The notes: generated by a model from the letters alone, not told the origin. A DNA stretch of 64,000 nt from Patescibacteria group bacterium (GCA_038063815.1 JBBTUJ010000003.1:12965-76964); one strand, 5' to 3'. Positions 4,353-62,454 are shown, counted from the first letter of the stretch. A program made the numbers and translations.

Positions 4353-5189
4353 ATGAAAACCTCAACAAAACTTCTTGTTCATTGTTCATTGTTCATTGTT
4401 TCTTTTTTTGCGATTACGGGCGTTGTGCTCGCAGCAAATGACTATACCCTCCTCGCACCATCGGTGCCTTTTATTGGAAAAACATACACCCCAGGAAATC
4501 TCGCGGGATACCTCCAGGGTATCTTTCGTTTGGGCATCGGGATTGCTGTTACGCTCGCAATTCTTATTCTCGTCAAAAATGGAATCCAGTGGATGGTTTC
4601 CGATGTCGCAGGAAAAAAAGAAGAGGTAAAAGATTGGTCGTGGGACGCCATTCTCGGACTTCTTCTCGCGTTTTCCGCATGGCTCATTCTAAGTACCATA
4701 AACCCAGATCTTGTTAAATTTAAACTCGTACAGACAATTAAAGATGCCAAAGAACAAGCACTTCGTCCTCCCGTTGGGGGTACGGTAACAACGGTAGGAA
4801 AACCGTGGCCAGACGACTCAAAGGAAAGAGGTCTGCTTGATGCTGGGGGCGTTCATGTAAAGACACCAACGTGCAAGACAGATGTTCAAAAGGGCTGTAC
4901 GAGCGTTGCGGGTCTTTCTCAAACGTCAATCTCTAAACTCATCCAGTTAAAGGCGAAGTGTAAGTGCGAGGTATTCATTTCGGGCGGAACAGAGTATTGG
5001 TTACACAAAACTCACGGCGGAAACAATACTGTTGATATTCGTAATTATGCTGACTTAGCTGCATATTTGGGAGGTATGGGAGAAAAGTGCGGAGACACAA
5101 AACCAAAAGATGGTTTGACGTTTCACTGGGAAGACAAAAGTTGTCCGTGGGCCACCGCAGGAGATGGTCACTGGCACGTTCCTTTGTAA
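4353..5189 (+). CDS. signal-peptide protein with two further TM helices and a Cys-rich C-terminal domain; possible pilin-like (VirB2/TrbC-like) T4SS component
   Basis: 'MKTSTKLLVHCSLFIVSFFAITGVVLAA' then 'GIFRLGIGIAVTLAILILV' and 'AILGLLLAFSAWLILSTI'; the 5' end carries TTCATTG tandem repeats. Confidence 0.4.
   Translation: MKTSTKLLVHCSLFIVSFFAITGVVLAANDYTLLAPSVPFIGKTYTPGNLAGYLQGIFRLGIGIAVTLAILILVKNGIQWMVSDVAGKKEEVKDWSWDAILGLLLAFSAWLILSTINPDLVKFKLVQTIKDAKEQALRPPVGGTVTTVGKPWPDDSKERGLLDAGGVHVKTPTCKTDVQKGCTSVAGLSQTSISKLIQLKAKCKCEVFISGGTEYWLHKTHGGNNTVDIRNYADLAAYLGGMGEKCGDTKPKDGLTFHWEDKSCPWATAGDGHWHVPL
4376..4403. repeat. tandem heptad repeat (TTGTTCA/TTCATTG) x about 3.5
   Basis: ttgttcattgttcattgttcattgtttc; the same motif recurs at 32913-32946 and 62415-62454, each at the 5' end of a pilus/T4SS-like gene. 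Confidence 0.7.
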
Positions 5190-5194
5190 GTAAG

Positions 5195-6478
5195 ATGTAT
5201 ATGCCCAAAAAAGTATCCCTCATTCTTACGCTTATCGTCATCCTCGCACTTGTCGGTGGCGTTTGGTTTTGGTTCGCATACATCCACACACCAGCCTCCG
5301 AATCTCCCACAACAGAAGAGTCGCGGGGTGGATTTTTCTCTTTCTTTGGTAACTACTTCGGTGGAAGTGGTGAGCCGGGGACACAGACCCCAACCAACGA
5401 AACCCCGGAAGTGCTTGCTCCCGCGTTCTCATTCCGAGAGCGTCTTACAAAGGAACGAATGCTCTCTCTTTCAGATGTTCCTCTTTCGGGTACAACGTTT
5501 GCACTCATGCGCAAAGGAACGACGACCCCCGCACTGTTCGACGAGCAGGTTCGGTTTGTTGAGAGAGAAACGGGGCACGTTGTTGACCTCTCAATCACAA
5601 CAGGGGACACCGAGCGCATCTCAAACACAACAATCCCCGGTATTCAAGAGACCATCTGGGGCAATGGCGGAAACACAGTTGCCCTTCGTTACCTCGCAGA
5701 AGATAGCGAAACGATAGAGACCTTTGTGGGAACGCTTCCGACAACAACTCCTGTTATGAACACGGACCTTGTTGGAACATTTTTTCCGCAAAACATCACA
5801 TCTCTCGCCATGCGTCCGACGAACGGAGAGGTGTTCTATGTCATCAAAAATCAAGATGGGGCGGCAGGACGTATTACAAATGTCGCAGGCACGAACACCC
5901 GAACTCTCTTTTCTTCTCCTCTTCGTGAGTGGGCCGCGCTCTGGACAAGCCCTTTAATCACCCTCACCACAAAACCGTCTGCACGAGCGACCGGATCTGC
6001 ACACTCTCTTAACCCATCAACGGGAGCGCTTGTACGGCTCACCCCAAACACATCGGGGCTAACTGTTCTTATGAACACGGAGCAAACTCGCGTGCTCTAT
6101 ACCAACACCACCCCTTCTACGGTTTCACTCTTTATACTCAACCTCACCACACAAGAAACATGGACTGTGCCCTTGAGAACTCTTCCAGAAAAGTGTGTGT
6201 GGCGAGATGAAACGAACCTCATATGCGCTGTACCGGACAACGTCCCTGGAAATATGCCCGACATTTGGTACCAAGGACGCGTGTCACTTTCCGATACCTT
6301 ATGGGCAATCGACACCGAAACCAAACTTGTTGATTTCCTCATCTCACCAGAGGAAATTATTGGAGAGGGTGTTGATGCGATTGGGCTTTCACTTTCTTCA
6401 GACGGCACAATTCTCTCGTTCATCAATAAAAAAGATCTGCGTGGTTGGATCGCAGATGTTACGTCAACCAACAACTAG
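5195..6478 (+). CDS. secreted/membrane-anchored Thr-rich protein, unknown function
   Basis: ATG at 5195 lies just after the upstream stop; the ORF-track start at 5087 overlaps the previous gene. TM 'VSLILTLIVILALVGGVWFWF'. C-terminus '...TSTNN' is encoded by the repeat hairpin. Confidence 0.5.
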   Translation: MYMPKKVSLILTLIVILALVGGVWFWFAYIHTPASESPTTEESRGGFFSFFGNYFGGSGEPGTQTPTNETPEVLAPAFSFRERLTKERMLSLSDVPLSGTTFALMRKGTTTPALFDEQVRFVERETGHVVDLSITTGDTERISNTTIPGIQETIWGNGGNTVALRYLAEDSETIETFVGTLPTTTPVMNTDLVGTFFPQNITSLAMRPTNGEVFYVIKNQDGAAGRITNVAGTNTRTLFSSPLREWAALWTSPLITLTTKPSARATGSAHSLNPSTGALVRLTPNTSGLTVLMNTEQTRVLYTNTTPSTVSLFILNLTTQETWTVPLRTLPEKCVWRDETNLICAVPDNVPGNMPDIWYQGRVSLSDTLWAIDTETKLVDFLISPEEIIGEGVDAIGLSLSSDGTILSFINKKDLRGWIADVTSTNN

Positions 6479-6500
6479 TGCTTTGTTTAGTTGTTGGTTG
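6465..6500. terminator. 13-bp perfect hairpin (CAACCAACAACTA / TAGTTGTTGGTTG) between convergent genes; candidate bidirectional terminator
   Basis: the stem arms overlap the stop codons of the 5195-6478 gene (TAG at 6476-78) and of yidC (TAA complement at 6487-89); built from the CAACCAACAAC repeat family. Confidence 0.55.
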
Positions 6501-7233
6501 TTGGTTGTTGGTTTTCGGCCGTTATTTTTTTCCTTGTCCACCATTCTTGCCCGATTGAGAATAGGTTTGATGTCGTCCAATAGAGCGCAACCGATGCGGG
6601 TAGCGCAGAAGCGATAAAGACGATGACAACGGGGAAGATGTATTTCATCTGGAACTGCAAACTCTTACTGAACTCGTTCCCGAATGATGGCTTGGTGTCT
6701 TTCTTTGTCTCAGGAACGCGCATGAGCTTCGCTTGGAAGAATTGTGAGACGCCGGCAAGGATAGCGATAGGAATACTCCTTACTGTCACGTCCACAAGTC
6801 CCAGGAACATCGTATTGATGTGTGACGGGGCATCAACGAATGAGTAGAGGAATGTGGGGTCTATCGCGGGAAAACCGGCCCGCAGAACCATGAAATAGAG
6901 ACCGAAAATGATCGGAATCTGAATGAAAAGAAAGAGGATATTCGAGAACGGATTAACCTTGTTGTTCCGATAGAGCTCCATCATCTTCACTGCCTGCTCT
7001 TGTTTGTCGTTCTTGTACTTCTCTTTAATGGCATCCATCTCCGGTTGGAGTTTTTGCACCATGAGTTGGGTGCGGACCGATTTTTGCGCGATAGGGAAGA
7101 GGATGAGTCGAATCACGCACGTGAAGACAATCACGATTACCCCGAGATCTGCCCAGGGAAGCGCCTGCATCAAAAGAACAATCCCGTTATACAAAGGTGT
7201 GGTAACAAACGTTCCGAATATGCTGTGTGACAT
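6487..7233 (-). CDS. yidC: membrane protein insertase YidC (short form)
   Basis: 248 aa, multi-TM, Oxa1/YidC-like; sits in the conserved rpmH-rnpA-yidC arrangement; C-terminus '...QQPTTNN'. Confidence 0.8.
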   Translation of the reverse strand: MSHSIFGTFVTTPLYNGIVLLMQALPWADLGVIVIVFTCVIRLILFPIAQKSVRTQLMVQKLQPEMDAIKEKYKNDKQEQAVKMMELYRNNKVNPFSNILFLFIQIPIIFGLYFMVLRAGFPAIDPTFLYSFVDAPSHINTMFLGLVDVTVRSIPIAILAGVSQFFQAKLMRVPETKKDTKPSFGNEFSKSLQFQMKYIFPVVIVFIASALPASVALYWTTSNLFSIGQEWWTRKKITAENQQPTTNN

Positions 7234-7254
7234 AGAAAGTAGTATACCTCGGCA

Positions 7255-7626
7255 CTAACTTTTGCGCATTCGGACATCCGATGTCCCGTCTTCGGACATC
7301 GAATATTCGAAAAGAAGATTCTTTATTTCCACCTCAAGTTCTTTGAACGAGAGTTCTGGTGCATTCTTTTTTGCAAACAACACATATCGACCGGGAGAGA
7401 TCGGTGTGTTTTTTTCCGACCGACGGAACACGTCATACACGCGGCGCTTGAGTTTGTGTCGCGCAACCGCTGTCCGTGCGACCTTTTTTGAAACAACAAC
7501 AGAGAAACGTGATGCCACGTCAGCGTGTGACACGGCGCGAAGAGAGAAGTGGGTGGCATGAAAAACCTGTCCGTCGCGTCCCGACGGAAATTCCTGCCGT
7601 GTTATACGACGCCTCTTTGAAAACAT
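7255..7626 (-). CDS. rnpA: ribonuclease P protein component
   Basis: 'SKRRRITRQEF...' RnpA motif; start taken at the internal M 'MFSKRRR'; lies downstream of rpmH. Confidence 0.8.
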   Translation of the reverse strand: MFSKRRRITRQEFPSGRDGQVFHATHFSLRAVSHADVASRFSVVVSKKVARTAVARHKLKRRVYDVFRRSEKNTPISPGRYVLFAKKNAPELSFKELEVEIKNLLFEYSMSEDGTSDVRMRKS

Positions 7627-7852: not shown

Positions 7853-7971
7853 AACTTTAATTGTGTGTTGTTGGTCGTTGGTTGTCGGTTAATTTGTCCC
7901 CACATTATTAACATAGTTATCTCCTTCTCACAAGTTCTCTCGGCACACCACTCATCTATAATGAACACTCT

Positions 7972-9356: not shown

Positions 9357-9502
9357 GATTTATCCAGCACTTACATTACTGTTATGTTTTTGTTACCAAA
9401 ACAACCCCAGAAGACAGAGAGTTATCGTTTGGTATTTTGGGGTTGTGTACGTGTTTTATAAAAACACAACATAACAACAGTAATGTAAGTGCTGGATAAA
9501 TC
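9357..9502. repeat. long imperfect palindrome (32-nt arms, 24 bp perfect core) in the dnaA-dnaN spacer; oriC-associated candidate
   Basis: left GATTTATCCAGCACTTACATTACTGTTATGTT pairs with right AACATAACAACAGTAATGTAAGTGCTGGATAAATC, which has a 3-nt bulge; inner palindrome GTGTTTTATAAAAACAC; arm ends carry TTATCCAGC (DnaA-box-like, 2 mismatches). Confidence 0.6.
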
Positions 9503-13313: not shown

Positions 13314-13376
13314 GTGTGGATAGTATACAACACCACATACAAGGAGGCCTTTTGTGGGCTATGGTATGCTTCACAT

Positions 13377-17579: not shown

Positions 17580-19259
17580 CTAGACGGAGAGATCGACAAC
17601 ACGTTCGATTTCTTCGAATGTTGTCGTGCCTTCAAGCACGCGGAGGATTGCGTCTTGTGAAAGAGAGAGAAACCCTTGTTCGCGTGCCGCCTTTCTAATT
17701 TCGCGCTCGCTCGGACTCTCCTCAACAATCCTCTCGATGGTCTCATTCATCACAATTGCCTCAAAGAGCCCAATACGGCCCTTATATCCGTCTCCACCGC
17801 ACTCGGCACAGCCCGGACCGGCCTCAAATACCTTCTCCCTTTGAATACCCGCGATCTTTGTGGGATCTCCCACATCACTCAAAATCCTCTCAACAAGTGC
17901 ACGTCGTTCATCTGGAATCGGTATCTCTTTTTTACATGCGGGACAGAGCGTACGAACCAGTCGCTGTGCGAGCGCGACATTTATTGCCGAGCCCAAGATG
18001 CGAGAATTGATACCGATGTCGATAAGGCGCGTGAATGCTCCCGCGGCGGAGTTTGTGTGAAGTGTTGAAAAAACTAAGTGACCGGTGAGCGCGGCATGAA
18101 TGGCAATCTCCGCTGTTTCGTTGTCGCGAATCTCACCAACCATGATGATGTCGGGGTCTTGCCGCACCGCCGCGCGAAGCCCGCTCTCGAACGTATAGTT
18201 TTTCTCTGCATCTACCTGTGTCTGCACGATTCCCGGAAGGTGATACTCAACAGGGTCTTCGATTGTGATGATCTTTACCTCCGGACTGTGCACTCTTTTC
18301 AAGAATGCGTAGAGAGTCGTTGTTTTTCCTGATCCGGTTGGGCCGGTTGTCAAAATCATACCGTTTGGCTTCGTTATTTCGTGCTCGAGGACGGCTCGTA
18401 GATCATCTCGCATACCAAGCTTCTCAATCGAGACGCTGATTGAATCGGGATTGAGGACACGCATGACGACCGACTCGCCGTACTGCCCCGGCAGGATAGA
18501 TGTACGGATCTCGATGTCCGAGGGGTCGATTTTGATGCTGAAACGACCGTCCTGCGCTTCGCTCTGGATATTCAATTTAAGTCCCGAGAGAAGTTTGAGG
18601 CGGGAGAGAAGTAGGCGATATGTTTCGTGATCAAAAAAGGAGACATCGGTCAAAATGCCGTCGAGTCGCATACGCAGTCGCACCTGCTTTTCTTCCGGTT
18701 CGATGTGGATGTCGGAAGAGCGTGTTGCAAGTGCGCTCGCGAGGAGAACCTCGACGATGCGCGATGTGCGAAATGCTTTTTTGAGATGCACCGTTTCTTC
18801 GATGAACCGCCGCACGTCCTCGACGGTATGCACATCTTTTATGAACGTATTGATATCTTCACTTGAGACATCAAGCATCCCTTTCTTGCTCTCTGACGCG
18901 AACTGGATGTCTTTGAAGCGATCCCACGCGAAGGTGAGGCTCTTTTTCGACGCAAGATATGTGTTCACCGAGAAACCTCGCGCTTCAAGATCCATAACAA
19001 CTTCACGTGCCGCTTCTCCTTCGGGAGAGTGCATCGCGACGTCAATCTCTTTATTCAAACGATTGAAAACCGCAACCTCGGCGGTTCGTGCTGTGCTTTC
19101 TGCCAAAAGGATGAGGGCATCGGTATTGATGGGAGTCGTAGTCAAATCGACATACGGGATGCCGTATTTCTGTGAAAGATTTTGGAGAGCGTCCTCCTCC
19201 TCTTTTTCGCGGAGCTGGTCATACTTCCGTGATTGTTTCGATTCGTCAAATTGGATCAT
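17580..19259 (-). CDS. pilB: type IV pilus assembly / type II secretion ATPase (GspE/PilB family)
   Basis: 'ILTTGPTGSGKTTTLYAF', 'GEIRD', C-terminal Cys4 'CPAC...CAECGGDGY'; start taken at the internal 'MIQFDESK'. Confidence 0.85.
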   Translation of the reverse strand: MIQFDESKQSRKYDQLREKEEEDALQNLSQKYGIPYVDLTTTPINTDALILLAESTARTAEVAVFNRLNKEIDVAMHSPEGEAAREVVMDLEARGFSVNTYLASKKSLTFAWDRFKDIQFASESKKGMLDVSSEDINTFIKDVHTVEDVRRFIEETVHLKKAFRTSRIVEVLLASALATRSSDIHIEPEEKQVRLRMRLDGILTDVSFFDHETYRLLLSRLKLLSGLKLNIQSEAQDGRFSIKIDPSDIEIRTSILPGQYGESVVMRVLNPDSISVSIEKLGMRDDLRAVLEHEITKPNGMILTTGPTGSGKTTTLYAFLKRVHSPEVKIITIEDPVEYHLPGIVQTQVDAEKNYTFESGLRAAVRQDPDIIMVGEIRDNETAEIAIHAALTGHLVFSTLHTNSAAGAFTRLIDIGINSRILGSAINVALAQRLVRTLCPACKKEIPIPDERRALVERILSDVGDPTKIAGIQREKVFEAGPGCAECGGDGYKGRIGLFEAIVMNETIERIVEESPSEREIRKAAREQGFLSLSQDAILRVLEGTTTFEEIERVVDLSV

Positions 19260-19325
19260 AGGGTAATAGTAGCAAATCAGGGTTGTACAGGTGAGGATGT
19301 TTAAGAAATGTGTGCGTGGGGGCTT

Positions 19326-19362
19326 CTTTAAAAACAACACCCGCCGACGCGAGGGGCTCGCG
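19326..19362 (-). terminator. GC-rich hairpin + T-run terminator (minus strand)
   Basis: on the minus strand: CCCCGCCGCGCGAGccccTCGCGTCGGCGGG followed by TGTTGTTTTT. Confidence 0.6.
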
Positions 19363-19787: not shown

Positions 19788-19867
19788 TTGGCCACTATTG
19801 GTCCGACGTGACGGTACGTTAGTTATTGAATAAAGTCAACTCTTTTTCCTAGTGCTACAATTCATTT

Positions 19868-20814: not shown

Positions 20815-23271
20815 ATGCCGAAAAAACCATCACCAACAAAAACAAAAAAGGGGAAAACGGGCGGAAAGCCGAAGCGGCTCGTGCTTCTTGATGCACACGC
20901 GATTATTCATCGTGCATACCACGCGCTTCCTGACTTTACATCCGCAACAGGCGAGCCGACGGGGGCGCTCTATGGTCTTGCGGCGATGCTCCTGAAGATT
21001 ATCGCGGATTTGAAGCCGGACTACATCGCGGCCGCATACGATCTTCCAAAACCAACACACCGCCACATCGCGTACGAAAAATATAAAGCGACACGCAAAG
21101 AGCTTGAAGAACCTCTTGTTGCTCAGCTTGTGCGAAGCAGGGACGTTTTCAAGGCATTCTCGATTCCAATTTACGATAGGGAAGAATTCGAAGCGGACGA
21201 TATCTTGGGCACGATTGTTGAAATGTTCAAAGACGATTCTTCAGTCGAAATCGTAATCGCGTCGGGCGACATGGATACGCTCCAACTTGTTTCGGGAGCG
21301 CGCGTCAAAGTGTTCACGCTCCGGAAGGGCATACAAGATACGATTCTCTACGACGAAAGCGACGTCGAGAAGCGCTTTGGATTTCCTCCAGTCCTTTTGC
21401 CTGACTACAAAGGTCTCCGCGGAGACCCGTCGGATAATATTCCCGGCATTGCTGGTATCGGAGAAAAAACAGCAACGACACTTATCACGACGTTTGGTGA
21501 CCTGGACGCGCTCTATAAAACACTTGCAAAAGGAGAGGAGAAGTTTTTAGGAGCAGGGATAACAAAACGAATCGTCGGACTTTTGAAAGAAGGAGAAGAA
21601 GAAGCGCGATTTTCGAAACTTCTCGCAACGATTCGGCGGGATGCGCCCATTACGTTCACACTTCCTGACACCGTCTGGCGCGAGCACGTTTCGGTGTCGG
21701 AGATTGTCACTCTTTTCACCGAACTCGGATTCCGCTCCCTCGTTGCCCGGGCAAAGGAAGCATTTCCTGAAATAAACCAACAACCAACAACAAACAACCA
21801 ACAACAAATATTTTACACAGAACCCACAACCTCTTTGTCTCATCAAGAATTAACTGAAACAAAGGTCGCCCTGTGGCTTCTGAACTCCGAGATCACCAAT
21901 CCGACGGAGGAAGATATCAAATATTTCGCACGGACGGACGACATCAAAAAGGCACGCGAACACATTCTTTCTGAGGTACAAAAGCAGGGTCTTACGGACG
22001 TTTTTGAAAAGATCGAAAAACCGCTTACGCCTGTTCTTGAAAAGATGCACGAGCGAGGTGTTCGCATCGATACGTCGTACTTAAGCGACATCGCGGAATC
22101 GTACCACGCGGAGCTCGATGCACTGAAGAGAAAGATATTCGAGCGTGCCGGAATGGAATTTAACTTAAATTCCCCGCGACAACTCGGAGATGTTCTCTTT
22201 ACCACACTAGGACTCACGGGAGGAAAGAAAACATCAACAGGGCAGAGGTCAACGCGCGAGTCAGAACTCGCAAAACTCGCGGACAAGCACCCGATTATTG
22301 GAGAGATTTTGCAACACAGGGAACTCCAGAAACTCCTCTCAACATATATTGATGCATTTCCAAAACTTCTTGGTCCCGATGGGCGTTTGCACACAACATT
22401 TGTACAAACGGGAGCGGCAACGGGACGTATGTCGTCTCAAAATCCGAACTTGCAGAATATTCCGATCAAAACGGAGCGCGGCCGCGCTGTTCGTGGAGCA
22501 TTTGTTGCATGTCCGGGTTTTGTGCTCGCAACATTTGACTACTCGCAGATTGAGCTCAGAATCGCAGCGATTCTTTCGCAAGATGAAAAACTTCTCAAAA
22601 CATTTTCTGAAGGCGGTGATATTCACACGGCTGTTGCGTCAGAGATTTTTAATGTGCCACAAAACGATGTGACGCAGACGATGCGCCGCACCGCGAAAGT
22701 CATTAACTTCGGTATCATCTACGGCATGGGCGCGAACGCGCTCGCAGCAACGGCGGGCATGAGTCGTAAAGATGCGCAAAAATATCTCGCGGAATATGAA
22801 AAGACATTCCCGACCCTCTCGCGTTGGATCGAGACCCTTTTTGGTGAAGTCCGAAAAAAAGGTTACACAGAAACACTTTTTGGGCGTCGGAGGCATCTTC
22901 CCGGTATCCGATCACCTCTTCCGTATATTCAGGCAGAAGCAGAGCGCCAAGCGGTCAATGCGCCCATTCAGGGAACTTCTGCAGACATCATCAAACGCTC
23001 AATGGTTGAGGTTGATGAATATATTGCACGAGAAAAATTAGATGACGACGTTTTTGCGATTCTTCAGATTCACGATGAACTCATGTATGAAATAAGGGAA
23101 GGTGTTGCAGACAAGGTCGTTCCGGAAATAAAAAAGATTATGGAGGCAGGGCTTAGAGACCACCTGCCTGCCGGCAAGGCAGGCGAGACGTATGGGGTTC
23201 CGATTGTTGTTGATGCCTCGGTCGGCACGCGGTGGGGAGAAATGAAAAAAGTAAACAACAAGAAAGAATAA
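20815..23271 (+). CDS. polA: DNA polymerase I (5'-3' exonuclease + polymerase; no 3'-5' exonuclease domain)
   Basis: motifs 'RRRHLPGIRS', 'INFGIIYGMG', 'QIHDELMYE'; 818 aa; the linker contains repeat-encoded 'QQPTTNNQQQ'. Confidence 0.9.
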   Translation: MPKKPSPTKTKKGKTGGKPKRLVLLDAHAIIHRAYHALPDFTSATGEPTGALYGLAAMLLKIIADLKPDYIAAAYDLPKPTHRHIAYEKYKATRKELEEPLVAQLVRSRDVFKAFSIPIYDREEFEADDILGTIVEMFKDDSSVEIVIASGDMDTLQLVSGARVKVFTLRKGIQDTILYDESDVEKRFGFPPVLLPDYKGLRGDPSDNIPGIAGIGEKTATTLITTFGDLDALYKTLAKGEEKFLGAGITKRIVGLLKEGEEEARFSKLLATIRRDAPITFTLPDTVWREHVSVSEIVTLFTELGFRSLVARAKEAFPEINQQPTTNNQQQIFYTEPTTSLSHQELTETKVALWLLNSEITNPTEEDIKYFARTDDIKKAREHILSEVQKQGLTDVFEKIEKPLTPVLEKMHERGVRIDTSYLSDIAESYHAELDALKRKIFERAGMEFNLNSPRQLGDVLFTTLGLTGGKKTSTGQRSTRESELAKLADKHPIIGEILQHRELQKLLSTYIDAFPKLLGPDGRLHTTFVQTGAATGRMSSQNPNLQNIPIKTERGRAVRGAFVACPGFVLATFDYSQIELRIAAILSQDEKLLKTFSEGGDIHTAVASEIFNVPQNDVTQTMRRTAKVINFGIIYGMGANALAATAGMSRKDAQKYLAEYEKTFPTLSRWIETLFGEVRKKGYTETLFGRRRHLPGIRSPLPYIQAEAERQAVNAPIQGTSADIIKRSMVEVDEYIAREKLDDDVFAILQIHDELMYEIREGVADKVVPEIKKIMEAGLRDHLPAGKAGETYGVPIVVDASVGTRWGEMKKVNNKKE

Positions 23272-24576: not shown

Positions 24577-25551
24577 TTAATACTGCCAGACGTCAACTAA
24601 CTTGCCCTGTGCGTCGAAGAGGCCAATCGTCTCGCGGTCGTCTCGCCACAAGTCGTTCCGATTTGCATTCAAAAAGATGCGCCACTCGTCTTTGAGGAAG
24701 TCGGAATCGTTCTTGTGGAGTTTTACGCACCCTTCGTAGTTGCTGTACTCGCGGATGAATGCGCGACACTCTTTTACCACATCTGACGGTGCGGACCCAC
24801 GCTCGCATTGTCCGACATCTTCGATTGCGTCCATACATTCGTCGTACTCATCTTCATCGTCAAAATCATCGAACGCAAGATCAAATTCGGAAAGATTTTC
24901 TTCTTCAAGAAGGGGACACTCGGAATAGAGTGACGGTATGAATCTGTTTTCATTCCCAAAATAGCCGATACATTTATTCACGAGGAACGAAGTGCGGATA
25001 CCCGCTGCTCCTCCTGTCGAAACAACTGCTTCATCCCCCGGCGCGAGATACATCGTGCCTGCGGAGAACCACGGTCGGTTGCCCATAAGCACACGCACAC
25101 CCTTGCCGATCTTCGCTCCCCGGTCGGTCACGAGGCTTTTGAGGACCCAGCCCGTGATAGGAATAGGCGTTTCATTGTCAGACGATGCGGAAAGGCGCAC
25201 GTATTCTTCGTTTCGGACATCTGTCCACGTATTCCCTGACTGAATCTCGACCTTTCCCGCGTAGGGAGAAAGGTTTTGGGAAAGTTTCGCCTCATCGATA
25301 TCACCTTCGAGTTCCTCGATCTTGGATTCGATCCGGTAGAGTTCACCTTCGCGATATTCGGTGTCGTCCACGACTCCGTCGTTGTCTGCGTCATATGAAC
25401 GAAGGTAAGTGTCTCTCTCGGTAAGGTCATATGAAGGTTCGTTGTTCCACGTGCTTCCGAATTCTCCGAATGAAAGACCAGCGTCTCTCATGACTGCCAC
25501 GATGAAGATGCCGGCGATAACGATAAAACCAATCTTAAAAAGTGAAGACAT
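24577..25551 (-). CDS. secreted protein with lamin-tail-domain (LTD)-like region and Cys/acidic C-terminus
   Basis: 'EYVRLSASSDNETPIPITGWVLKSLVTDRGAKIGKGVRVLMG' LTD-like; start at internal 'MSSLFKIGFIVIAG' (TM/signal). Confidence 0.45.
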   Translation of the reverse strand: MSSLFKIGFIVIAGIFIVAVMRDAGLSFGEFGSTWNNEPSYDLTERDTYLRSYDADNDGVVDDTEYREGELYRIESKIEELEGDIDEAKLSQNLSPYAGKVEIQSGNTWTDVRNEEYVRLSASSDNETPIPITGWVLKSLVTDRGAKIGKGVRVLMGNRPWFSAGTMYLAPGDEAVVSTGGAAGIRTSFLVNKCIGYFGNENRFIPSLYSECPLLEEENLSEFDLAFDDFDDEDEYDECMDAIEDVGQCERGSAPSDVVKECRAFIREYSNYEGCVKLHKNDSDFLKDEWRIFLNANRNDLWRDDRETIGLFDAQGKLVDVWQY

Positions 25552-25554
25552 ATG

Positions 25555-25600
25555 AATACAGTAACAAACAACCAACAACCTACAACAAGCAAGAGAGGCC
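25555..25600. repeat. CAACCAACAAC-family repeat (gtaacaaacaaccaacaacctacaacaag) in the 5' region of the LTD gene
   Basis: the same motif family as at 1-19, 451-487, 6465-6500, 7861-7890, 20105-20120, 21778-21810, 34052-34141. Confidence 0.6.
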
Positions 25601-30789: not shown

Positions 30790-30812
30790 GCCTTTCTTGG
30801 TACAATCACTAT

Positions 30813-32834: not shown

Positions 32835-32912
32835 TTGGTAGACCGTAGTACGAAGAACGTGGCGCGCCGCTTCTCCCTGATTCTGCAGAATTAGGGAGAA
32901 GCGGCAAATCCT

Positions 32913-32946
32913 TGTTCCTTGTTCATCGTTCATTGTGTATCATTGA
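32913..32946. repeat. degenerate TTCATTG heptad tandem repeat upstream of pilM
   Basis: ttgttccttgttcatcgttcattgtgtatcattg immediately 5' of the pilM ATG (32951). Confidence 0.6.
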
Positions 32947-34045: not shown

Positions 34046-34051
34046 TACAAA

Positions 34052-34141
34052 ACCAACGACCGACAACTAACGACAGAAAACATTGGCAAATGGCGAAGTG
34101 GTTTGTTGTGGGTTGTAGGTTGTGGGTCGTTGGTTACAATA
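34052..34141. repeat. composite inverted-repeat element (copy B, no cargo) between pilM and pilN
   Basis: left ACCAACGACCGACAACTA (identical to 1-18) + 30-nt spacer + right GTTTGTTGTGGGTTGTAGGTTGTGGGTCGTTGGTTACAATA; ACCAACGACC pairs with GGTCGTTGGT. Confidence 0.65.
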
Positions 34142-34146
34142 GTGTT

Positions 34147-41870: not shown

Positions 41871-42091
41871 GCTCCATCACGTCTTGGTATACTTTTTATA
41901 CGCGCAGTATTAATGTATCTTCTGATTCAAATATACACACGGGATATTTGTATGACCATTTGGACGGATACGATTTTAACAACGCTAGTGTCTATGTTTG
42001 TGGCCGTGATGTTGCCTGTAAGGCAATGGTTGAGAAAATCAAAGCGCTAGGGCCCCAAAATTGCGAATTCTTTGTCGAGGGGTTTCATTGA

Positions 42092-42134
42092 TTGTCTTCG
42101 TGCTCGAACAAAAATAAGAACTGGTATACTTTTG
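42092..42134 (+). promoter_or_regulatory. conserved promoter module (copy 2) with extended -10 TGgTATACT
   Basis: paralogous to 40803-40845; lies inside the ORF-track N-terminal extension of the next gene. Confidence 0.6.
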
Positions 42135-42136
42135 TT

Positions 42137-42940
42137 ATGGAAGGTGAATCAAAACTGAAAACAGCGGAAACAGATGAACCACCTTTTGTTGGGAGCCGGT
42201 TGGATAGCGAGGTCTCAGAAGACCACAAGGGCTCGGGCAAGTTAACAGAAATAGAAAATAACCCGAACAAGGTTATTCGCCGCGAGAGCCTCGATGCTTT
42301 ACGTACTAGGTATAAGAACAAGATAGAGATAGTCGAGCTTGTTCGTATCGCAAAAACACTATTTGAGGAGTTGGAAACAAAATACGGGATTGAGGCACCG
42401 GTTGATTTTATTATTGGGGTAGACGCACCGGGAAATGGGGTCGTCTATTCGATTGTTGATAAGATTGATGGGGAGGGTTTGGGTGTTCTTGGGGACTCGT
42501 CCGAAGCACTTTCCCAGATCCAAGATCTCTACGCTTCAGTTGCTCGGTATTATCTCGATAAATTAAGAGACGGAGGTTTTTACCTGAACGATATTGCGAA
42601 CGAAGCACAGTATGTATATGGTAAAAAGCCAGGTACAGAAAAGAATAAGATATATCTTGTAGATACGGACATATATTTTAACGAAAGCAGTGTCAAAATG
42701 TATACAACAGTAGTGTGGCTAACAAGACACATCAAGGAACACGAAAAGAATCTCGGAATCGTGTTTGAAAGCGCTCGCGAGTACCTGCAACAATTTGTTA
42801 ATCAACCGTTGCCTGACAAAATGAGTAGTGAAGAAAAAATACGTGTTACAAAAAATATTGAAGGTATACAGAAGTTCTTAAACCACGAAAAACTTGGAGA
42901 AGGACCAATTCCAGCGATTCCGGACTTCGATATACGTTAG
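42137..42940 (+). CDS. hypothetical cytoplasmic protein
   Basis: ATG at 42137 after the promoter module; no recognised motif. Confidence 0.5.
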   Translation: MEGESKLKTAETDEPPFVGSRLDSEVSEDHKGSGKLTEIENNPNKVIRRESLDALRTRYKNKIEIVELVRIAKTLFEELETKYGIEAPVDFIIGVDAPGNGVVYSIVDKIDGEGLGVLGDSSEALSQIQDLYASVARYYLDKLRDGGFYLNDIANEAQYVYGKKPGTEKNKIYLVDTDIYFNESSVKMYTTVVWLTRHIKEHEKNLGIVFESAREYLQQFVNQPLPDKMSSEEKIRVTKNIEGIQKFLNHEKLGEGPIPAIPDFDIR

Positions 42941-42974
42941 GAAGTGGGCTTTTGAAAAAACACCAGTTCCAGCG

Positions 42975-43727
42975 TCACGGTCTCTTTTTTGTTGGAAGTG
43001 TGTTCCAGATGAAATTCCACCACTTTATATAATCTTGTGCGAGTGTTTTATCTTTAAGAACGAAAATTGTTATATCATCTGATAGGCCTTTTGGATTTAT
43101 GCCGGAGTAAATAGCCACATAATTTCCAAAAATATCAATTGACGACTCGGTTGATAACTCTTTGGGGAGAAATTTATATTCGCCGCCAACAGCCCGTGTT
43201 ATTTCTGGGAATTCTTTAATTGATGCGTCATATATAATTTTATTTTTTAAACGAAGCAGGGAATACTTTTTTACAGCATGTCTAACAAAATTCTTTATAC
43301 GAGGATCAAACCATGACCCCTTACTTCCGAGGCCGTAAATAGGTTTTCCAACAGAGAGCTCGAGTGCAATATAGTTCTTAAGCCCGCCGATGCCTTTGTA
43401 TACATATACCGACTGTGATGTAACAACATTTTTGTATTTTTTGATGAGACCAGGCAGGGCGTTTTCAAGGTTCTGTACTCGCTCGTCAAGTATCTCTCGT
43501 AGTTTATCGGGATGTACGGGCGCATACGTGAGAATTTTTTTTGGTAAAACTTGAAAGGCGAGACCTTTGTGAATAAGGCGTTGAATAGCATCATACGTAT
43601 TGCGACGATGAATCTCCGCATGTTTAGAAATGCTCCAAATAGAGGCCCTTTTAAGCTCTAAAAGAGATTTGTAGATCTTGCTCTCATTGGGTGTTAAACC
43701 AATATCTTTGAGTACCTGTTCATACAT
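42975..43727 (-). CDS. TrmB-family (sugar-responsive) transcriptional regulator
   Basis: N-terminal wHTH 'MYEQVLKDIGLTPNESKIYKSLLELKRASIWSISKHAEI...'; the ORF may extend to 43802. Confidence 0.6.
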   Translation of the reverse strand: MYEQVLKDIGLTPNESKIYKSLLELKRASIWSISKHAEIHRRNTYDAIQRLIHKGLAFQVLPKKILTYAPVHPDKLREILDERVQNLENALPGLIKKYKNVVTSQSVYVYKGIGGLKNYIALELSVGKPIYGLGSKGSWFDPRIKNFVRHAVKKYSLLRLKNKIIYDASIKEFPEITRAVGGEYKFLPKELSTESSIDIFGNYVAIYSGINPKGLSDDITIFVLKDKTLAQDYIKWWNFIWNTLPTKKRP

Positions 43728-43919
43728 GGAAATGTAGTGTAGCGTCATTTTTAGAAAGGTCAATAAAATGGTGGTATTGGCCACCACCTGTGATAAGTAC
43801 AATTATTTTATTGGAAATATTGGGTAGTAGGACCCGTTCATCTTTCATGGACAAAATAAGAGCGCTTAAGGTTTTTTGAAAAAGGGGTATAAAATTATTC
43901 GTACAGATAATTTATTTTT

Positions 43920-45029
43920 ATGAAGAACTTTTTGAAAAAAGCGGGAACGGTTCTTATAATACTTGTCGTTTTTGTTATTGGTGCGAGTTACATCAAAAAC
44001 AAAAATAGAGACGTATCCAAGTCAATAAAGGTAGGTGTTGTGTTGCCGCTCACCGGTGACAGTGCTTTTATAGGTGAAGATATGAAAAGAGGGATTGATC
44101 TTGCTGCGGAGGAATTCCCAATGGCCGAGTTTATATATGAAGACAGTGCGGGTAACGTGAAAACTGCGGTCTCTGCGTACCAAAAAATACTTCTTAATAA
44201 ACCCACTGTCATTATTGTAGCGGGCACTGGTGTTGAATCTATAATTCCAATTGCAGAAGAGAACAAAATTCCAACGTTTTTGAGCGTCTCTTCGGCTTCG
44301 GGACTACCACAACAAGGGGAATACATTTTTCGTTATTTTACAAATGCAGATAATGACGCTCCTGTGATGGCTGAGTACGTGGTCGAAAAACTTGGTCTGA
44401 AAAAATTTGCAACGCTATACCTTCAAGATCAGTTTGGGATTGATTACAATGAGGTCTTTTCCCATGAGGTGGTGCGCCGTGGGGGAGAGGTTGTGGTATC
44501 GGAAAGTTTCAACTATGGGAATTTTGATTACCGTAGCCAATTGACGAAACTGAGCGAGAAAGAATTTGATGCACTATATCTTATCGGTCTTGATTTTCAA
44601 CTTATCCGCGCACTAAAAGAAATGAAAGAACTGGGAATAAGCACCCAGATTCTTTCTTTGGGGACTGTTGCAACTCGAGGCGCAATAGAACAGGCGGGGA
44701 CTTCAATTGAAAACGTTTATCTAACAGCATTTTGTACCGATGGTTCACCAGAGGAGTATGTAGTACAATTTCAGAATAAATACGGTATTTATCCGGGATT
44801 TTTTTCTGAGATTGGTTACGACATAGTCCAGATGTTAAAAAAAGCATCTGAAAACGGTCGCGAAAAAAAGAACATACAGCAAGGACTTCTTTCAATAAAA
44901 AACTTTACTGTAAATACTGGCGTAGTCACATCAGACCCATTCGGAGAAATGATTATCCCTATGTGTGTAAAAAAAATTACTGGTGGAAAAATATTCAACA
45001 CGGTTACGGAAAAATATTCAAACTACTGA
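43920..45029 (+). CDS. ABC transporter substrate-binding protein (Leu/Ile/Val-binding LivJ/K-like family)
   Basis: signal/TM anchor; 'KVGVVLPLTGDSAFIGEDMKRGIDLAAEE' type-I periplasmic-binding-fold motif. Confidence 0.7.
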   Translation: MKNFLKKAGTVLIILVVFVIGASYIKNKNRDVSKSIKVGVVLPLTGDSAFIGEDMKRGIDLAAEEFPMAEFIYEDSAGNVKTAVSAYQKILLNKPTVIIVAGTGVESIIPIAEENKIPTFLSVSSASGLPQQGEYIFRYFTNADNDAPVMAEYVVEKLGLKKFATLYLQDQFGIDYNEVFSHEVVRRGGEVVVSESFNYGNFDYRSQLTKLSEKEFDALYLIGLDFQLIRALKEMKELGISTQILSLGTVATRGAIEQAGTSIENVYLTAFCTDGSPEEYVVQFQNKYGIYPGFFSEIGYDIVQMLKKASENGREKKNIQQGLLSIKNFTVNTGVVTSDPFGEMIIPMCVKKITGGKIFNTVTEKYSNY

Positions 45030-45093
45030 ACAGTTCTATTTTCTTCAGTCTCTCGCGGAAAAACCCCTTTGGCACGGGGCAGGTTCATGGTGC

Positions 45094-45117
45094 TTGACAG
45101 ATACCCCCTAGGGGTAT
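45094..45117 (+). promoter_or_regulatory. -35-like TTGACA + perfect palindrome ATACCCC(C)TAGGGGTAT: candidate CsoR-family operator
   Basis: GC-rich pseudo-palindrome of the CsoR-operator type (ATACCCnnnnGGGTAT) 14 bp upstream of the repressor start. Confidence 0.65.
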
Positions 45118-45130
45118 ACCTTTGTTGTAT

Positions 45131-45397
45131 ATGCATAACGACATACACACAAAGGTTACCAACCGCCTCAAGCGTATTGAGGGGCAGGTTCGTGGCTTGC
45201 AAAAAATGGTAGGAGAAAAAAAGTACTGCATTGATATCATCACGCAGTCGTCAGCGATCCGGAACGCGCTGGCTTCTGTCGAAGACCTGATGTTGCAGAA
45301 CCATCTCTCGCAACACGTAGCGCATCAGATGAAACATGGCAAAGAAGCGCAGGCGGCAGAAGAAATCTTGAAGGTCTACAAACTCAAAAGAAAATAA
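45131..45397 (+). CDS. csoR: CsoR/RcnR-family metal-sensing transcriptional repressor
   Basis: 'KRIEGQVRGLQKMVGEKKYCIDIITQSSAIRNAL' DUF156 signature; precedes copA. Confidence 0.8.
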   Translation: MHNDIHTKVTNRLKRIEGQVRGLQKMVGEKKYCIDIITQSSAIRNALASVEDLMLQNHLSQHVAHQMKHGKEAQAAEEILKVYKLKRK

Positions 45398-45400
45398 TAT

Positions 45401-47704
45401 ATGGAAACATCACGAACATACAAAATAAAAGGCATGCACTGTGCGTCATGTGCGGCAATTATCGAAAAAACATTCAAAAAAACAGATGGCGTGCATTCGG
45501 TGCAGGTCAACTACGGCACAGAGACGGCCAAGGTTGCATTTGACGAATCAAAAACAAATCCAACAGACCTTTCAAAAAAGATAGAGCCACTTGGCTATTC
45601 TCTGCATCTGCCAGATGGCCCAAGCGCCAAGGATATGGGCATGTCCGAGGATGAGCACGCAGAACATCTAGGCCTTAATCAGTCAAAGAAAGAGAAACTT
45701 GCTGAGGTTGCTGATATGAAGGCAAAGGTATTATCTGCAATCCCGCTTACGATAGTCGCCGCCCTTGTTATGGGTTGGGATATTCTCTCTCAATACGGAG
45801 CAGTATCGGGAATGAGTTACGTGGTTAAAGAATTTTTCCATCACATCCTTCCACTGATGGCCACATACACTCTTTTTGTAGTCGGCAAGCCATATCTCCT
45901 TGGTTTTTACCGATTCCTTCGATATGGAAAGGCAAACATGGACACACTCATTGGTATTGGAACAGTCGCAGCTTTCCTATACAGTTTTGCCGTTACGGCT
46001 TTTGAAGAAGTACTTAAACCTTTCATAAACGTTGAGTACCAATACTATGACGTTACGATTGTGGTAATTACTTTCATTGCACTTGGAAAATACCTTGAAG
46101 CACGTTCAAAAATAAAGACGGGTGACGCGATAGAAAAACTTCTTAATCTGCAGGCAAAGACAGCGCTCGTTGTTCGTGATGGAAAAGAAATAGAGATTCC
46201 TGTTACTGATGTGAAGCATGGCGACCTTGTTATCGTAAAACCGGGGGCAAAGATTCCCGTTGACGGAACAGTCACCGAAGGCGTGTCGTTTGTTGACGAA
46301 TCTATGGTGACAGGTGAACCCATGCCAGCTCAAAAAAAAGTGGGCGACAGTGTTGTTGCTGGAACGATTAACACAACTGGCTCGTTTATATTTACAGCGA
46401 CAAAGATTGGCTCGGAAACACTTCTCGCACACATTATTCATATGGTTGAAGAAGCGCAGGGAAGCAAGGCGCCCATTCAAGCCCTTGCGGACAAAATATC
46501 GTCCGTCTTTGTGCCAATCGTGTTAGTTCTTGCGTTTGTAACGCTTGGCGCGTGGCTGGTGTTTGGCACACAATACCTCGGTTTTTCACAAGCGCTTTCG
46601 TTTGGCCTCGTGTCATTTGTTGGAATCTTGGTAATCGCATGTCCGTGCGCGCTTGGGCTTGCGACACCAACAGCAATTATTGTGGGTGTCGGAAAGGGCG
46701 CAAAAGAGGGAATCCTCATCAAAGATGCGGCAACACTCGAGAAGCTTCACAAGGTAGACACGGTTATCGTCGACAAGACGGGAACAATTACAATCGGCAA
46801 GCCAACCCTCGTTGATATTCAAAATTTTTCAAAGCAATCAGACAACGAACTTGTATCAATTCTCGCATCACTTGAGAAAAAGTCGGAGCACCCCATTGCT
46901 CATGCAATTGTTTCGTACGCACAAGAGAAAAACATAAAAACAGAAGATGCCCTCAACTTCGAGGGTATCCAAGGCAAGGGAGTTACGGCGTCAATCGAGG
47001 GCACTGTGTACTATGCGGGGAATGTGGACCTCATCAAGGGTCTTGGTGTGTCATTTGATGCCTCAAAAATTGAACAGTTCACCGCGCAAGGAAAAACGCC
47101 GGTTGTTCTTGCAACAAAAGAAAAGGTTCTCGGATTTGTCATGGTTGCCGATGAAATAAAACCAGAATCAAAACAGGCAATAGCAGATCTACACAAGCTT
47201 GGAATCAAGGTGGTGATGTTGACAGGGGATGACGAGAAGGCGGCAAAACACATGGCATCTCTTGTTGGCATTGATGATGTTGTCGCTCATGTGTTGCCAC
47301 AGGATAAACTGGCCAAGATCAAAGAGTTGCAATCACAAGGCAGAATCGTGGCAATGGCCGGCGACGGTGTCAACGATGCCCCCGCGCTTGCCCAAGCCGA
47401 TGTGGGTATCGCCATGGGAACGGGAACTGATGTGGCAATAGAGTCAGCTGGCATCACGCTTCTTGGTGGAGATATTTCAAAACTTGTAAAGGCAATCAAG
47501 CTCTCAAAAATGACCATGCGCGGGATAAAGCAAAATCTTTTCTGGGCGTTTATCTACAATATTGTTGGAATCCCACTTGCGGCGGGGGCTTTCTATCCAA
47601 TTTTTGGTTGGCTCTTGTCGCCGGTGTTTGCAGGATTAGCAATGGCACTGTCGTCGGTATCTGTGGTGTCAAACTCATTGCGGATTAAAACCAAAAAACT
47701 ATAA
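45401..47704 (+). CDS. copA: copper-translocating P1B-type ATPase
   Basis: N-terminal HMA 'MHCASCA', TM 'CPC', 'DKTGTIT', '[10 protein letters not shown]'. Confidence 0.95.
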
Positions 47705-47739
47705 ACAGGCGCGCTTATTAAAAGTAGTAACTAACAAAT

Positions 47740-48360
47740 ATGACAAATAACAATAATACGGTCTGGCTCGTTTTGGGGGGAATTATAATTGGCCTACTTC
47801 TTGCGCCGTGGCTCATTCCCATGATGGGGTTCGGTTCAATGATGGGGCGGAGAACTAACACAGCATTAAGTCCTCGAACGACAAGCGCCAACTTAATTGA
47901 CCAACATTTTATTGAACAAATGATACCGCATCACGATGGGGCAATTGCTATGGCAAATCTCGCACTTACGAAGGCAACACACCCAGAAATTGAAACATTA
48001 GCGAAAGACATTCTTCTTGCTCAAACAAAAGAAAACTCAGAAATGCGCTTGTGGTATAGGGCGTGGTTTGGTGTAGACGTATCCGTGGACAGTTCCGCCA
48101 TGATGGGTGGCATGATGTCGCAGGGTGGAATGCATATGGGCGGGTTAGAGGACGTAACCACTCTCGACAGCGCAACGGACTTTGACAAAGAGTTTATTGA
48201 ACAGATGATTCCACATCATCAGATGGCTATTATGATGGCGCGAATGCTTGAGTCGGGAACCGATCGCCCAGAAATGTTGGAACTTGCCAAAAACATAATC
48301 GAGTCACAATCACAGGAGATTCAAAAAATGCAGGGTTGGTATCAAGAATGGTATCAATAG
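47740..48360 (+). CDS. DUF305-domain protein (copper-resistance associated)
   Basis: duplicated 'FIEQMIPHH(D/Q)(G/M)AI(A/M)MA' DUF305 motif; N-terminal TM. Confidence 0.8.
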   Translation: MTNNNNTVWLVLGGIIIGLLLAPWLIPMMGFGSMMGRRTNTALSPRTTSANLIDQHFIEQMIPHHDGAIAMANLALTKATHPEIETLAKDILLAQTKENSEMRLWYRAWFGVDVSVDSSAMMGGMMSQGGMHMGGLEDVTTLDSATDFDKEFIEQMIPHHQMAIMMARMLESGTDRPEMLELAKNIIESQSQEIQKMQGWYQEWYQ

Positions 48361-48408
48361 CAAAGAAAAAGGACTTGGCTGATGTGTTAATAAATTTATT
48401 AAAATTAT

Positions 48409-60775: not shown

Positions 60776-60805
60776 GTACGGACATACAGACATATCGCGG
60801 ACAGA

Positions 60806-60845
60806 CGCGGAAAACACCACCGGCCTTCTGGGGCCGGTGGTGTTT
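60806..60845. terminator. bidirectional rho-independent terminator
   Basis: AAAACACCACCGGCCttctGGGGCCGGTGGTGTTTTT. Confidence 0.8.
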
Positions 60846-60852
60846 TTACGTC

Positions 60853-61110: not shown

Positions 61111-61332
61111 ATAGGTATCTCCATGATATTAGAGTATATCTAAAAACCTTTCCCTGCCTACGCTGCACGATGGCTGGCTCCGACACGCTCGTCTCGACCT
61201 CACCGTACCACCGGTATGGCTCGGTCTCCGACTCGATGTCTCGCCGACGCCCTCGCGCGGCTCGGTTCGGGAACCCAGGTTTTCAGATATACTCTTCAGG
61301 AGGAATCATATTACCCCATAATTTTTCTACCT

Positions 61333-62196: not shown

Positions 62197-62219
62197 AACG
62201 CACAAAGACCGAAAGAACA

Positions 62220-62250
62220 AAACCACCACGAGCACTGCTCGCGGTGGTTT
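62220..62250 (+). terminator. rho-independent terminator
   Basis: CCACCACGAGCAcTGCTCGCGGTGG + TTTTG. Confidence 0.7.
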
Positions 62251-62268
62251 TGCCTTTGAAAATGCTAC

Positions 62269-62401
62269 ACCCGCACACTAACTTTTGTATTGTTGCAGCA
62301 GGAGACGAACCACTTTTTCTTAAGACGGAGTAAGGGAACACTTTTCGATTTTGCTATTAAACTACAACGTAATAACGCTATACAAAAGTTAGTGTGCGGG
62401 T
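62269..62401. repeat. 22-bp perfect inverted repeat (ACCCGCACACTAACTTTTGTAT / ATACAAAAGTTAGTGTGCGGGT) enclosing an about 90-nt interior
   Basis: arms at 62269-62290 and 62380-62401; between the SIMPL terminator and the second pilB promoter (TATACT at about 62401-62406). Confidence 0.7.
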
Positions 62402-62414
62402 ATACTAAGGGTAC

Positions 62415-62454
62415 GTTTCATTGTTTTCGTTCATTGTTCGTTGTTTGTTATTTC
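62415..62454. repeat. degenerate TTCATTG heptad tandem repeat immediately upstream of the second pilB
   Basis: gtttcattgttttcgttcattgttcgttgtttgttatttc, directly 5' of the ATG at 62455. Confidence 0.6.

Follow-up and report, generated by a model that had tools for sequence, protein, structure and literature searches.

A stretch of 64,000 nucleotides from a Patescibacteria group bacterium (GCA_038063815.1 JBBTUJ010000003.1:12965-76964), called the window below, carries short tandem arrays of the heptanucleotide TTCATTG at the 5′ ends of three genes of envelope machines: the pilin of a type IV secretion system (T4SS), pilM and the second pilB (pilB2). Judging from its DnaA relatives and the sample names, the host is a Patescibacteria (Parcubacteria-type) metagenome-assembled genome (MAG) from groundwater of the Hainich H41 well. 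On balance, we favour the view that the TTCATTG tracts are members of a young, lineage-specific, dispersed family of G/T-rich heptanucleotide tandem repeats, and that any effect on pilus and T4SS genes is most likely a by-product. Remodelling of promoter-proximal DNA by this young family, particularly at pilus and T4SS genes, is the most likely interpretation of the data; a regulatory use of the arrays is possible.

The three tracts are found at the places where an earlier note on this DNA had located them, and they are strand-specific. The first is perfect; the second and third are degenerate:

4375..4400, plus strand: array A2, (TTGTTCA)3.7, perfect, within the coding sequence (CDS) of the T4SS pilin.
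32912..32936, plus strand: array A7, degenerate units GTTCCTT GTTCATC GTTCATT, upstream of pilM.
62415..62454, plus strand: array A10, units GTTTCATT GTTTTC GTTCATT GTTCGTT GTTTGTT, abutting the pilB2 ATG at 62455.

Tandem Repeats Finder (TRF) describes A2 as a period of 7 with 3.7 copies and 100% matches, and three exact TTCATTG units lie at 4378-4398. The array sits inside the open reading frame (ORF) 4353-5189 (Pfam T4SS_pilin), of which it forms codons 8-16, encoding LLVHCSLFIV, the hydrophobic core of the signal peptide. An alignment with 11 homologues backs both the signal peptide and the start at ATG 4353, and this start is coupled to the upstream stop codon at a distance of 2 nt; this alignment and this coupling rule out a misassigned start, in which A2 would be a 5′ leader. 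Read in sense, TTCATTG contains no stop codon and encodes FIVHCSL. A7 consists of 3.6 copies with 83% matches (TRF) and only one exact TTCATTG. It is followed by GTG, TATCAT (32938-32943), 7 nt and the pilM ATG at 32951, which a 364-aa database entry confirms. A10 has two exact units, unit lengths of 8, 6, 7, 7 and 7 nt and a 65% match to ungapped (TTCATTG)n. It spans the gap from TATACT (62401-62406) to the pilB2 ATG, which comes directly after its last base and is also the start in the gene call.

These tracts are part of a larger set. At least 11 arrays occur in ~64 kb, in two unit variants, GTTGTNG and GTTCATT, with the consensus register GTT-N-N-T-K. The GTTCATT variant comprises the three TTCATTG sites (4375, 32912, 62415), and the GTTGTNG variant is found at 450, 6490, 7867, 21775, 25563, 34051, 34098 and window 1-18:

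1..18, minus strand: array A0, GTTGTCG GTCGTTG x3, the last part of an array that continues past the left window edge, 3′ of the IVP gene.
450..481, plus strand: array A1, GTTGTTG GTTGTAG GTTGTGG GTTGTGG GT, upstream of a TraC-like gene.
6490..6513, plus strand: array A3, (GTTGTTG)3.4, between convergent genes, at the 3′ end of yidC.
7867..7890, plus strand: array A4, GTTGTTG GTCGTTG GTTGTCG GT, then TAATTT, in the rpmH-dnaA spacer.
21775..21808, minus strand: array A5, antisense in the polA interdomain linker, encoding NQQPTTNNQQQ.
25563..25586, minus strand: array A6, GTTGTAG GTTGTTG GTTGTTT GT, upstream of an LTD-domain gene.
34051..34075, minus strand: array A8, reverse-oriented, directly after the pilM stop, pairing with A9.
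34098..34135, plus strand: array A9, GTTGTGG GTTGTAG GTTGTGG GTCGTTG GT, upstream of pilN.

All arrays were treated as one family because A10 holds the intermediate units GTTCGTT and GTTTGTT and because a TTCATTG-likeness scan of the window also picks up the GTTGTTG arrays. Repeat families D2, D3 and D6 connect arrays with each other, and the 18 nt of A0 are identical to 34052-34069. Seven arrays are sense-oriented and close to a 5′ end, without a Shine-Dalgarno (SD) motif; others lie 3′ of g5195 and downstream of the IVP gene. Those of polA and yidC run antisense in CDS, with A3 specifying, on the minus strand, the residues NQQPTTNN at the C-terminal end of YidC; in the polA linker and the YidC tail, simple-sequence repeats have been taken into protein-coding sequence. 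The first pilB (pilB1, 17580-19340) and pilC (on contig L213) have no array, and ~10 kb more of the same genome (L213) contain no further TTCATTG array.

Period 7 stands out in the window, with 4 strong tandem runs, while none of the other periods between 4 and 12 gave a single one. When GTT had to recur every 7 nt in 11 or more of 12 positions, 9 arrays were obtained, vs 0-2 at periods 5, 6, 8, 9 and 10; these 9, the inverted partner at 34051-34075 and the left-edge array at 1-18 make up the count of 11. A pattern of two TTCATTG units with at most 2 mismatches was found 6 times vs 1.13 expected, a number reached in 1 of 100 shuffles. The single TTCATTG heptamer is not enriched in the window (13 found vs 16 expected), which rules out an element of the DNA-uptake-sequence type.

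The position of the arrays relative to promoters could be described in detail. TANNNT stands 6-9 nt before the start codon in 18 of 55 genes, vs 2.15 expected (P=1e-11; for example 481-493, 7234-7246, 13314-13327, 19856-19867, 30801-30812 and 34135-34146), and SD motifs are rare in the window. On these grounds most operon-first genes appear to be leaderless. Four arrays, that of pilM among them, adjoin a -10 box whose distance to the start codon is 6-7 nt. For the TraC-like gene, which opens the T4SS cluster, A1 provides TTGTAG (459-464), followed by a 16-nt spacer, TACAAT (481-486), 7 nt and ATG 494 (TTGTAG-N16-TACAAT-7-ATG). A9 runs into TACAAT (34135-34140), 6 nt and the pilN GTG at 34147, where the protein starts MANLLP (TTGTAG-N16-TACAAT-6-GTG), and A6 into TACTGT, 6 nt and the ATG at 25551 of the LTD-domain membrane protein (TTGTAG-N16-TACTGT-6-ATG). 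GTTGTAG is at the -35 position in these three of the four GTTGTNG arrays that run through GT into TAnnnT. The fourth of this group, A4, separates the divergently oriented rpmH (ATG 7852, minus strand) from dnaA (ATG 7972); it reads TTGTTG-N16-TAATTT upstream of dnaA (7867), with no start codon 6-9 nt downstream, and on the opposite strand it is 1 nt upstream of the CACAAT-7nt-ATG of rpmH. A TTG hexamer 16-18 bp before TAnnnT is present for the arrays at 450, 25563 and 34105. At pilM, TTCCTT is 17 bp from the -10 box, and the TTCATTG units give no TTG hexamer at 16-18 bp. In a strict-consensus sigma-70 scan, none of the GTTGTNG promoters matched, the only match being TATACA-16-TATACT upstream of the pilB2 array; no clear -35 consensus was seen in the other leaderless promoters of the window.

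The situation of pilB2 is different from that of pilM. Its TATACT lies in a 24-nt stretch ~85% identical to the leaderless yidC promoter, and A10 would constitute the entire 5′ untranslated region (UTR), 41 nt long. This leader has no SD, folds weakly (-7.9 kcal/mol) and is less structured than shuffles (z=+1.2). With respect to the inferred promoter, the arrays are at -13 to ~-40 (pilM), at +1 to +41 (pilB2) and in codons 8-16 (pilin), and such differing positions do not suit one operator-type mechanism.

Comparison with relatives speaks for the youth of the arrays. L001 and L002 (DnaA identity 74-75%) show full synteny between the TraC-like gene and pilB1, and at all four comparable sites they are free of heptad arrays. 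They have a -10 box 7 nt before the TraC-like ATG (TTGTGT-N16-TACAAT and cTGACg-N17-TACCAT). At the pilin site, L001 reads CTTGTCCCATTCATC in place of (TTGTTCA)3.7, which is compatible with the pilin tract being a local expansion of a seed sequence. In a closer relative (L212, L215; PilM 86% and PilB2 92% identical), pilM has TATACT-6-ATG in a 19-nt spacer and no array, pilN has TTGTCT-N16-TACAAT-6-GTG in a 36-nt spacer, with -10 box and start conserved and no array, and pilB2 has TACAAT and then a 20-nt leader of the type CTTTGTTCTTCT. The corresponding spacers of the window measure 116 (pilM), 101 (pilN) and 258 nt (pilB2). Because the relatives keep the -10 boxes without the arrays, we read the arrays, together with hairpins and inverted-repeat-flanked elements, as recent insertions or expansions beside pre-existing -10 boxes. 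A mobile promoter cassette with its own -10 box was discarded, since these boxes are ancestral and present in the array-less relatives. Conservation of the operator type was not found at the orthologous promoters of L001, L002, L212 and L215.

Several arrays are associated with potential hairpins. The inverted pair A8 and A9 between pilM and pilN folds into a hairpin of -41 kcal/mol (z=-5.4), and A3, between convergent genes, pairs with CAACCAACAAC (6465-6475) to form a hairpin (-24 kcal/mol) that is followed by a U-run. A third hairpin was inserted with A7 between a tRNA-binding-domain gene and pilM:

32866..32905, plus strand: perfect ~20-bp hairpin, terminator-like, without a U-run (-46.5 kcal/mol, z=-7.0).

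A role as terminator or insulator is probable for the hairpins that have array arms.

The exact TTCATTG variant is absent from housekeeping starts, as the earlier note had stated. Sister arrays of the family are nevertheless present between rpmH and dnaA, in polA, at the 3′ end of yidC and at the IVP gene, and the claim that the repeat is confined to pilus genes was abandoned. An exact scan of metagenome contigs for (TTCATTG)3 leads to the same conclusion, having returned at least 120 stretches of 28-66% GC in mixed and unrelated contexts. A pilus gene was nearby in 3 of 80 loci, none in the arrangement of the window, and orientation to neighbours was inconsistent. This rules out a conserved pilus-specific motif.

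Period 7 is also prominent beyond this genome. Among 52 Patescibacteria loci, it is the commonest non-triplet tandem period (17 runs vs 0-5), and each lineage has its own heptad unit, e.g. AATTTTG, TAATTAG or TAGGGTT. In L038 a heptad array occupies the same rpmH-dnaA position as in the window. Examples are TAGGGTT units in L212 (5224-5242, 5325-5356), GTTATTA, TAATTAG and GTTGTTG units in L045 (4480-4583) and AATTTTT and AATTTTG units in L038 (9693-9715, 17214-17275); the heptads of these three loci are often in origin-proximal or ruvA-rpsT spacers, sometimes as inverted pairs. In the literature, we found no description of dispersed heptanucleotide repeat families in Patescibacteria.

Such families are known from other bacteria. 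Heptanucleotide STRR repeats occur in the cyanobacteria Calothrix and Anabaena (cited in PMC4692102); Mazel and colleagues reportedly described them in 1990. Their units differ from ours, the cyanobacterial arrays are said to be often longer, and we know of no described relation between STRR and leaderless promoters. Shared features are the organization in tandem heptanucleotide families that are intergenic, dispersed and lineage-specific, with no settled function.

The closest parallel in detail is with the TAACTGA repeats of marine Beggiatoaceae, some Cyanobacteria and Bacteroidetes, whose function is unknown (MacGregor 2015, PMC4679880). There, too, one heptamer unit occurs in 2-6 tandem copies at many dispersed loci, mostly intergenic and forward, a few nt from a start codon lacking an SD; a minority is reversed in ORFs or overlaps ORF ends, inverted pairs occur occasionally, and the distribution is patchy and lineage-specific (PMC4679880). 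The window differs in its units (GTTGTNG, GTTCATT) and in its host, a small-genome Patescibacterium. In addition, many of its arrays are upstream of a leaderless -10 box, so that promoter DNA rather than mRNA is the likely level of any action, and they show an apparent bias to T4SS and type IV pilus (T4P) genes, whereas no functional pattern was seen in Beggiatoa (PMC4679880).

Heptameric repeats are reported to be over-represented in bacteria (PMC4692102), the intergenic heptamers GGGAATC of Xanthomonas and GGGGA(T/C)T of Nostoc being examples (Rehm 2015, PMC4692102). With these the window arrays share intergenic over-representation, inverted pairs between convergent genes and a length and sequence that vary among close relatives (PMC4692102). 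The Xanthomonas and Nostoc units can, however, form G-quadruplexes, whereas TTCATTG arrays are devoid of G-runs and weak two-tetrad structures could form only in some GTTGTGG arrays. An explanation by G-quadruplexes would apply only to GGG-containing arrays and was rejected for TTCATTG. The excess of period 7, the recurrence of the same unit at many loci, the position and orientation of the arrays and their lineage specificity all correspond to what defines a dispersed heptanucleotide family. By this analogy, the window arrays most likely belong to a known but unexplained class.

We propose the following scenario. The family would have spread recently in this genome, its arrays arising by local expansion or insertion, probably through replication slippage and copying between arrays, and persisting where they are harmless. 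One tolerated place would be directly upstream of a leaderless -10 box, where GTTGTNG gives a TTG-containing hexamer 16 bp away that may serve as a -35-like element. Others would be an unstructured, U-rich, SD-free leader (pilB2), a signal peptide whose hydrophobic residues they encode in frame (T4SS pilin), CDS in antisense orientation, where Asn/Gln/Pro/Thr linkers or tails result (polA, YidC), and the arms of intergenic hairpins. In this way, the arrays may re-build the upstream halves of promoters and the leaders of pilus and T4SS genes, and together with co-inserted hairpins may shield pilM and pilN from transcription that started further upstream. A shared operator or an on/off switch is improbable, and there would be no dedicated binding factor.

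Several observations weigh against this scenario. With just two unit variants at 11 loci, a copying mechanism or a sequence-specific selection must exist, since units that arose by slippage at each locus separately would be unrelated. Of the 10 orientable arrays, 8 have their G/T-rich strand in sense. Four GTTGTNG arrays end in one register, heptads followed by GT and TAnnnT, and this common register relative to the -10 box points to selection acting on the promoters. Lastly, sense arrays near the 5′ end are found at 5 of 6 envelope-machine genes vs 1 of 36 others (Fisher p=4e-5, for genes with their own upstream spacer and for the whole heptad family, with categories chosen post hoc). Such a concentration at T4SS, T4P and LTD genes is not predicted by a purely neutral process. 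A pilus/T4SS-specific reading, as in the earlier note, is supported only in part: it has this enrichment in its favour and the sister arrays at dnaA/rpmH, polA, yidC and the IVP gene against it.

The same observations are the strength of a cis-regulatory explanation at the DNA level, in which the heptads would bind a transcription factor or form a special sigma/-35 element and define a young, lineage-specific regulon of T4SS, type IV pilus and LTD genes. The arrays are enriched at the promoters of envelope machines and strand-specific, their units recur at dispersed loci, the -10 register is identical and GTTGTAG occupies the -35 position in three promoters. We nevertheless consider this explanation unlikely. 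The arrays are placed inconsistently, upstream of the -10 box (pilM, pilN, TraC-like), downstream of it (pilB2) or within the CDS (pilin), and they also occur in polA, in the yidC and IVP tails and at dnaA/rpmH. Relatives have the -10 boxes at the orthologous promoters but no arrays, pilB1 and pilC have none either, and at pilM the TTCATTG units leave the -10 box without a TTG hexamer at a distance of 16-18 bp. The analysis gave no candidate regulator; the only regulator noticed, of the TrmB family (42975-43802), belongs to an unrelated metal-resistance block. For the earlier note, the tracts were a candidate shared site co-regulating the envelope machines, to be refuted by a similar frequency at unrelated genes or by an invariant copy number in an array that lies downstream of the transcription start and has no effect. 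What stands of this is the 5′ position at envelope-machine genes; the variable position, the absence in relatives and the related arrays at unrelated genes go against it, and copy number was invariant in the assemblies compared (see below). The two refuting outcomes are thereby borne out in part.

A variant of this idea, to which we give somewhat less credit, is that heptad arrays were rapidly recruited as cassettes, often with a hairpin, at the -10 box or leader of T4SS, T4P and surface genes. They would then form a new lineage-specific regulon with a heptad-binding factor, e.g. one OB-fold or sigma domain per 7-nt unit. If true, an episymbiont would offer a natural case in which simple-sequence repeats rewired promoters rapidly.

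Slightly more doubtful again, though also favoured by the unit recurrence, strand bias and 5′ concentration named above, is an action after transcription, in which G/U-rich heptads would be bound by a protein of the S1 or cold-shock type, one unit per OB-fold, and tune SD-less translation. Cold-shock proteins bind T-rich stretches of ~7 nt. A10, as the inferred 5′ UTR of pilB2, has no SD and is unstructured, the pilin array starts 22 nt after the ATG in the region covered by the initiating ribosome, and the arrays are in sense orientation; the same proposal has been made for the TAACTGA repeats (MacGregor 2015, PMC4679880). The arrays of pilM, pilN, the TraC-like gene and the LTD gene are, however, upstream of the -10 box and therefore outside a leaderless mRNA barring read-through, and at pilM and pilN the co-inserted hairpins block this path.

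The earlier note had also suggested phase variation. Gain or loss of a heptad would shift the pilin frame, or the promoter or leader length, and thereby switch surface structures. Indeed, 7 is not a multiple of 3, and by arithmetic a one-unit change in the perfect 3.7-copy pilin tract would shift the frame; the genes concerned specify surface structures, and a precedent exists in Haemophilus influenzae. The hmw1A/hmw2A genes of H. influenzae have a phase-variable 5′-UTR repeat, (ATCTTTC)n, of at least 11 perfect units that varies between isolates and forms with a G-rich partner a long hairpin cleaved by RNase III (PMC12721329). The likeness, by inference and for pilB2 only, is a heptamer array between promoter and start of a surface-structure gene, in a transcribed leader. 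The window tracts differ in having 3-5 imperfect units, no leader partner and no variation. The pilB2 leader, with ~5 imperfect units and weak folding, falls short of the hairpin of at least 11 units that the hmw system requires for its rheostat (PMC12721329).

The tracts of the window are not of the long, perfect, slippage-prone kind, with 3.7 perfect copies for the pilin and 83% and 65% matches with indels for the others, two of the three being too degenerate to slip easily. At the GTTGTNG promoters, a one-unit change still leaves TTG 16 bp from the -10 box, so no switching would result. Most directly, 5 arrays were identical in copy number in 10 comparisons between independent assemblies (Logan, ENA and NCBI MAG assemblies), which were consensus assemblies from several Hainich samples of one aquifer and may miss rare variants. 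Phase variation thus lacks support and is regarded as improbable. In the independent assemblies, two short low-coverage contigs stop in or beside arrays, L085 at about window position 17 (A0) and L086 at about 7847 (A4), as expected because dispersed repeats break de Bruijn-graph assemblies.

A chance resemblance of T-rich sequence near gene starts would fit the lack of enrichment of the single heptamer and the degeneracy of the second and third sites, and is practically dismissed by the shuffles, by period 7 being the sole one and by the 11 related arrays.

Two further candidates were rejected. Replication-strand bias does not account for the orientation of the arrays, which tracks gene direction on both sides of dnaA and not the GC-skew switch. 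A known RNA family or riboswitch was also excluded, Rfam at gathering thresholds having returned 7 tRNAs in the window and nothing else.

The interest of the dispersed family lies in where it is found. The arrays cluster at genes for pili and T4SS, on which these episymbionts probably rely. In so small a genome, apparently leaderless for the most part, one can see directly how each array is placed relative to -10 box and start codon, and relatives with 75-92% protein identity but no arrays show that the insertions are recent. Should the clustering extend to the whole genome, this would be a simple system for the spread of a repeat family and the possible rewiring of promoters; if it does not, we are dealing with an ordinary lineage-specific simple-sequence repeat.

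Other repeats were noted around pilB2. A 25-nt inverted repeat upstream of the gene (62266-62290 / 62380-62404) is 96% complementary, with 89 nt between its arms. It breaks up the TACAAT promoter that L215 has there, its right arm resembles the yidC promoter (7240-7264), and Rfam gave no match; possibly this is a small promoter-carrying element between inverted repeats. In the same genome, just past the right window edge, an insertion of ~115 nt flanked by CCCGTTAGAGATA ... TATCTCTAACGGG lies between pilB2 and pilC (L213 3186-3300), where L215 has an 8-nt spacer.

From Pfam matches, the gene order of the window is as follows:

First in gene order: the T4SS-like cluster, with the TraC-like gene, a VirB4/TraG-like ATPase and the pilin.
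After the T4SS-like cluster: yidC, rnpA, rpmH, dnaA and dnaN.
After dnaN: the first pilB (17580-19340), polA and the LTD-domain protein.
After the LTD-domain protein: RuvX, pilM and pilN.
After pilN: the metal-resistance block, then the second pilB (pilB2).

The metal-resistance block (~42000-48400) is of lower GC (39-43%) and is possibly an acquired island; besides the TrmB-family regulator, it codes for a heavy-metal P-type ATPase carrying an HMA domain, for a periplasmic binding protein and for DUF305. The dnaA-dnaN spacer (400 nt) contains a 37-nt inverted repeat (9357-9393 / 9466-9502, 89% complementary) with a TTATCCA box, probably part of oriC, and the minimum of the cumulative GC skew is close to this repeat, at ~10-12 kb.

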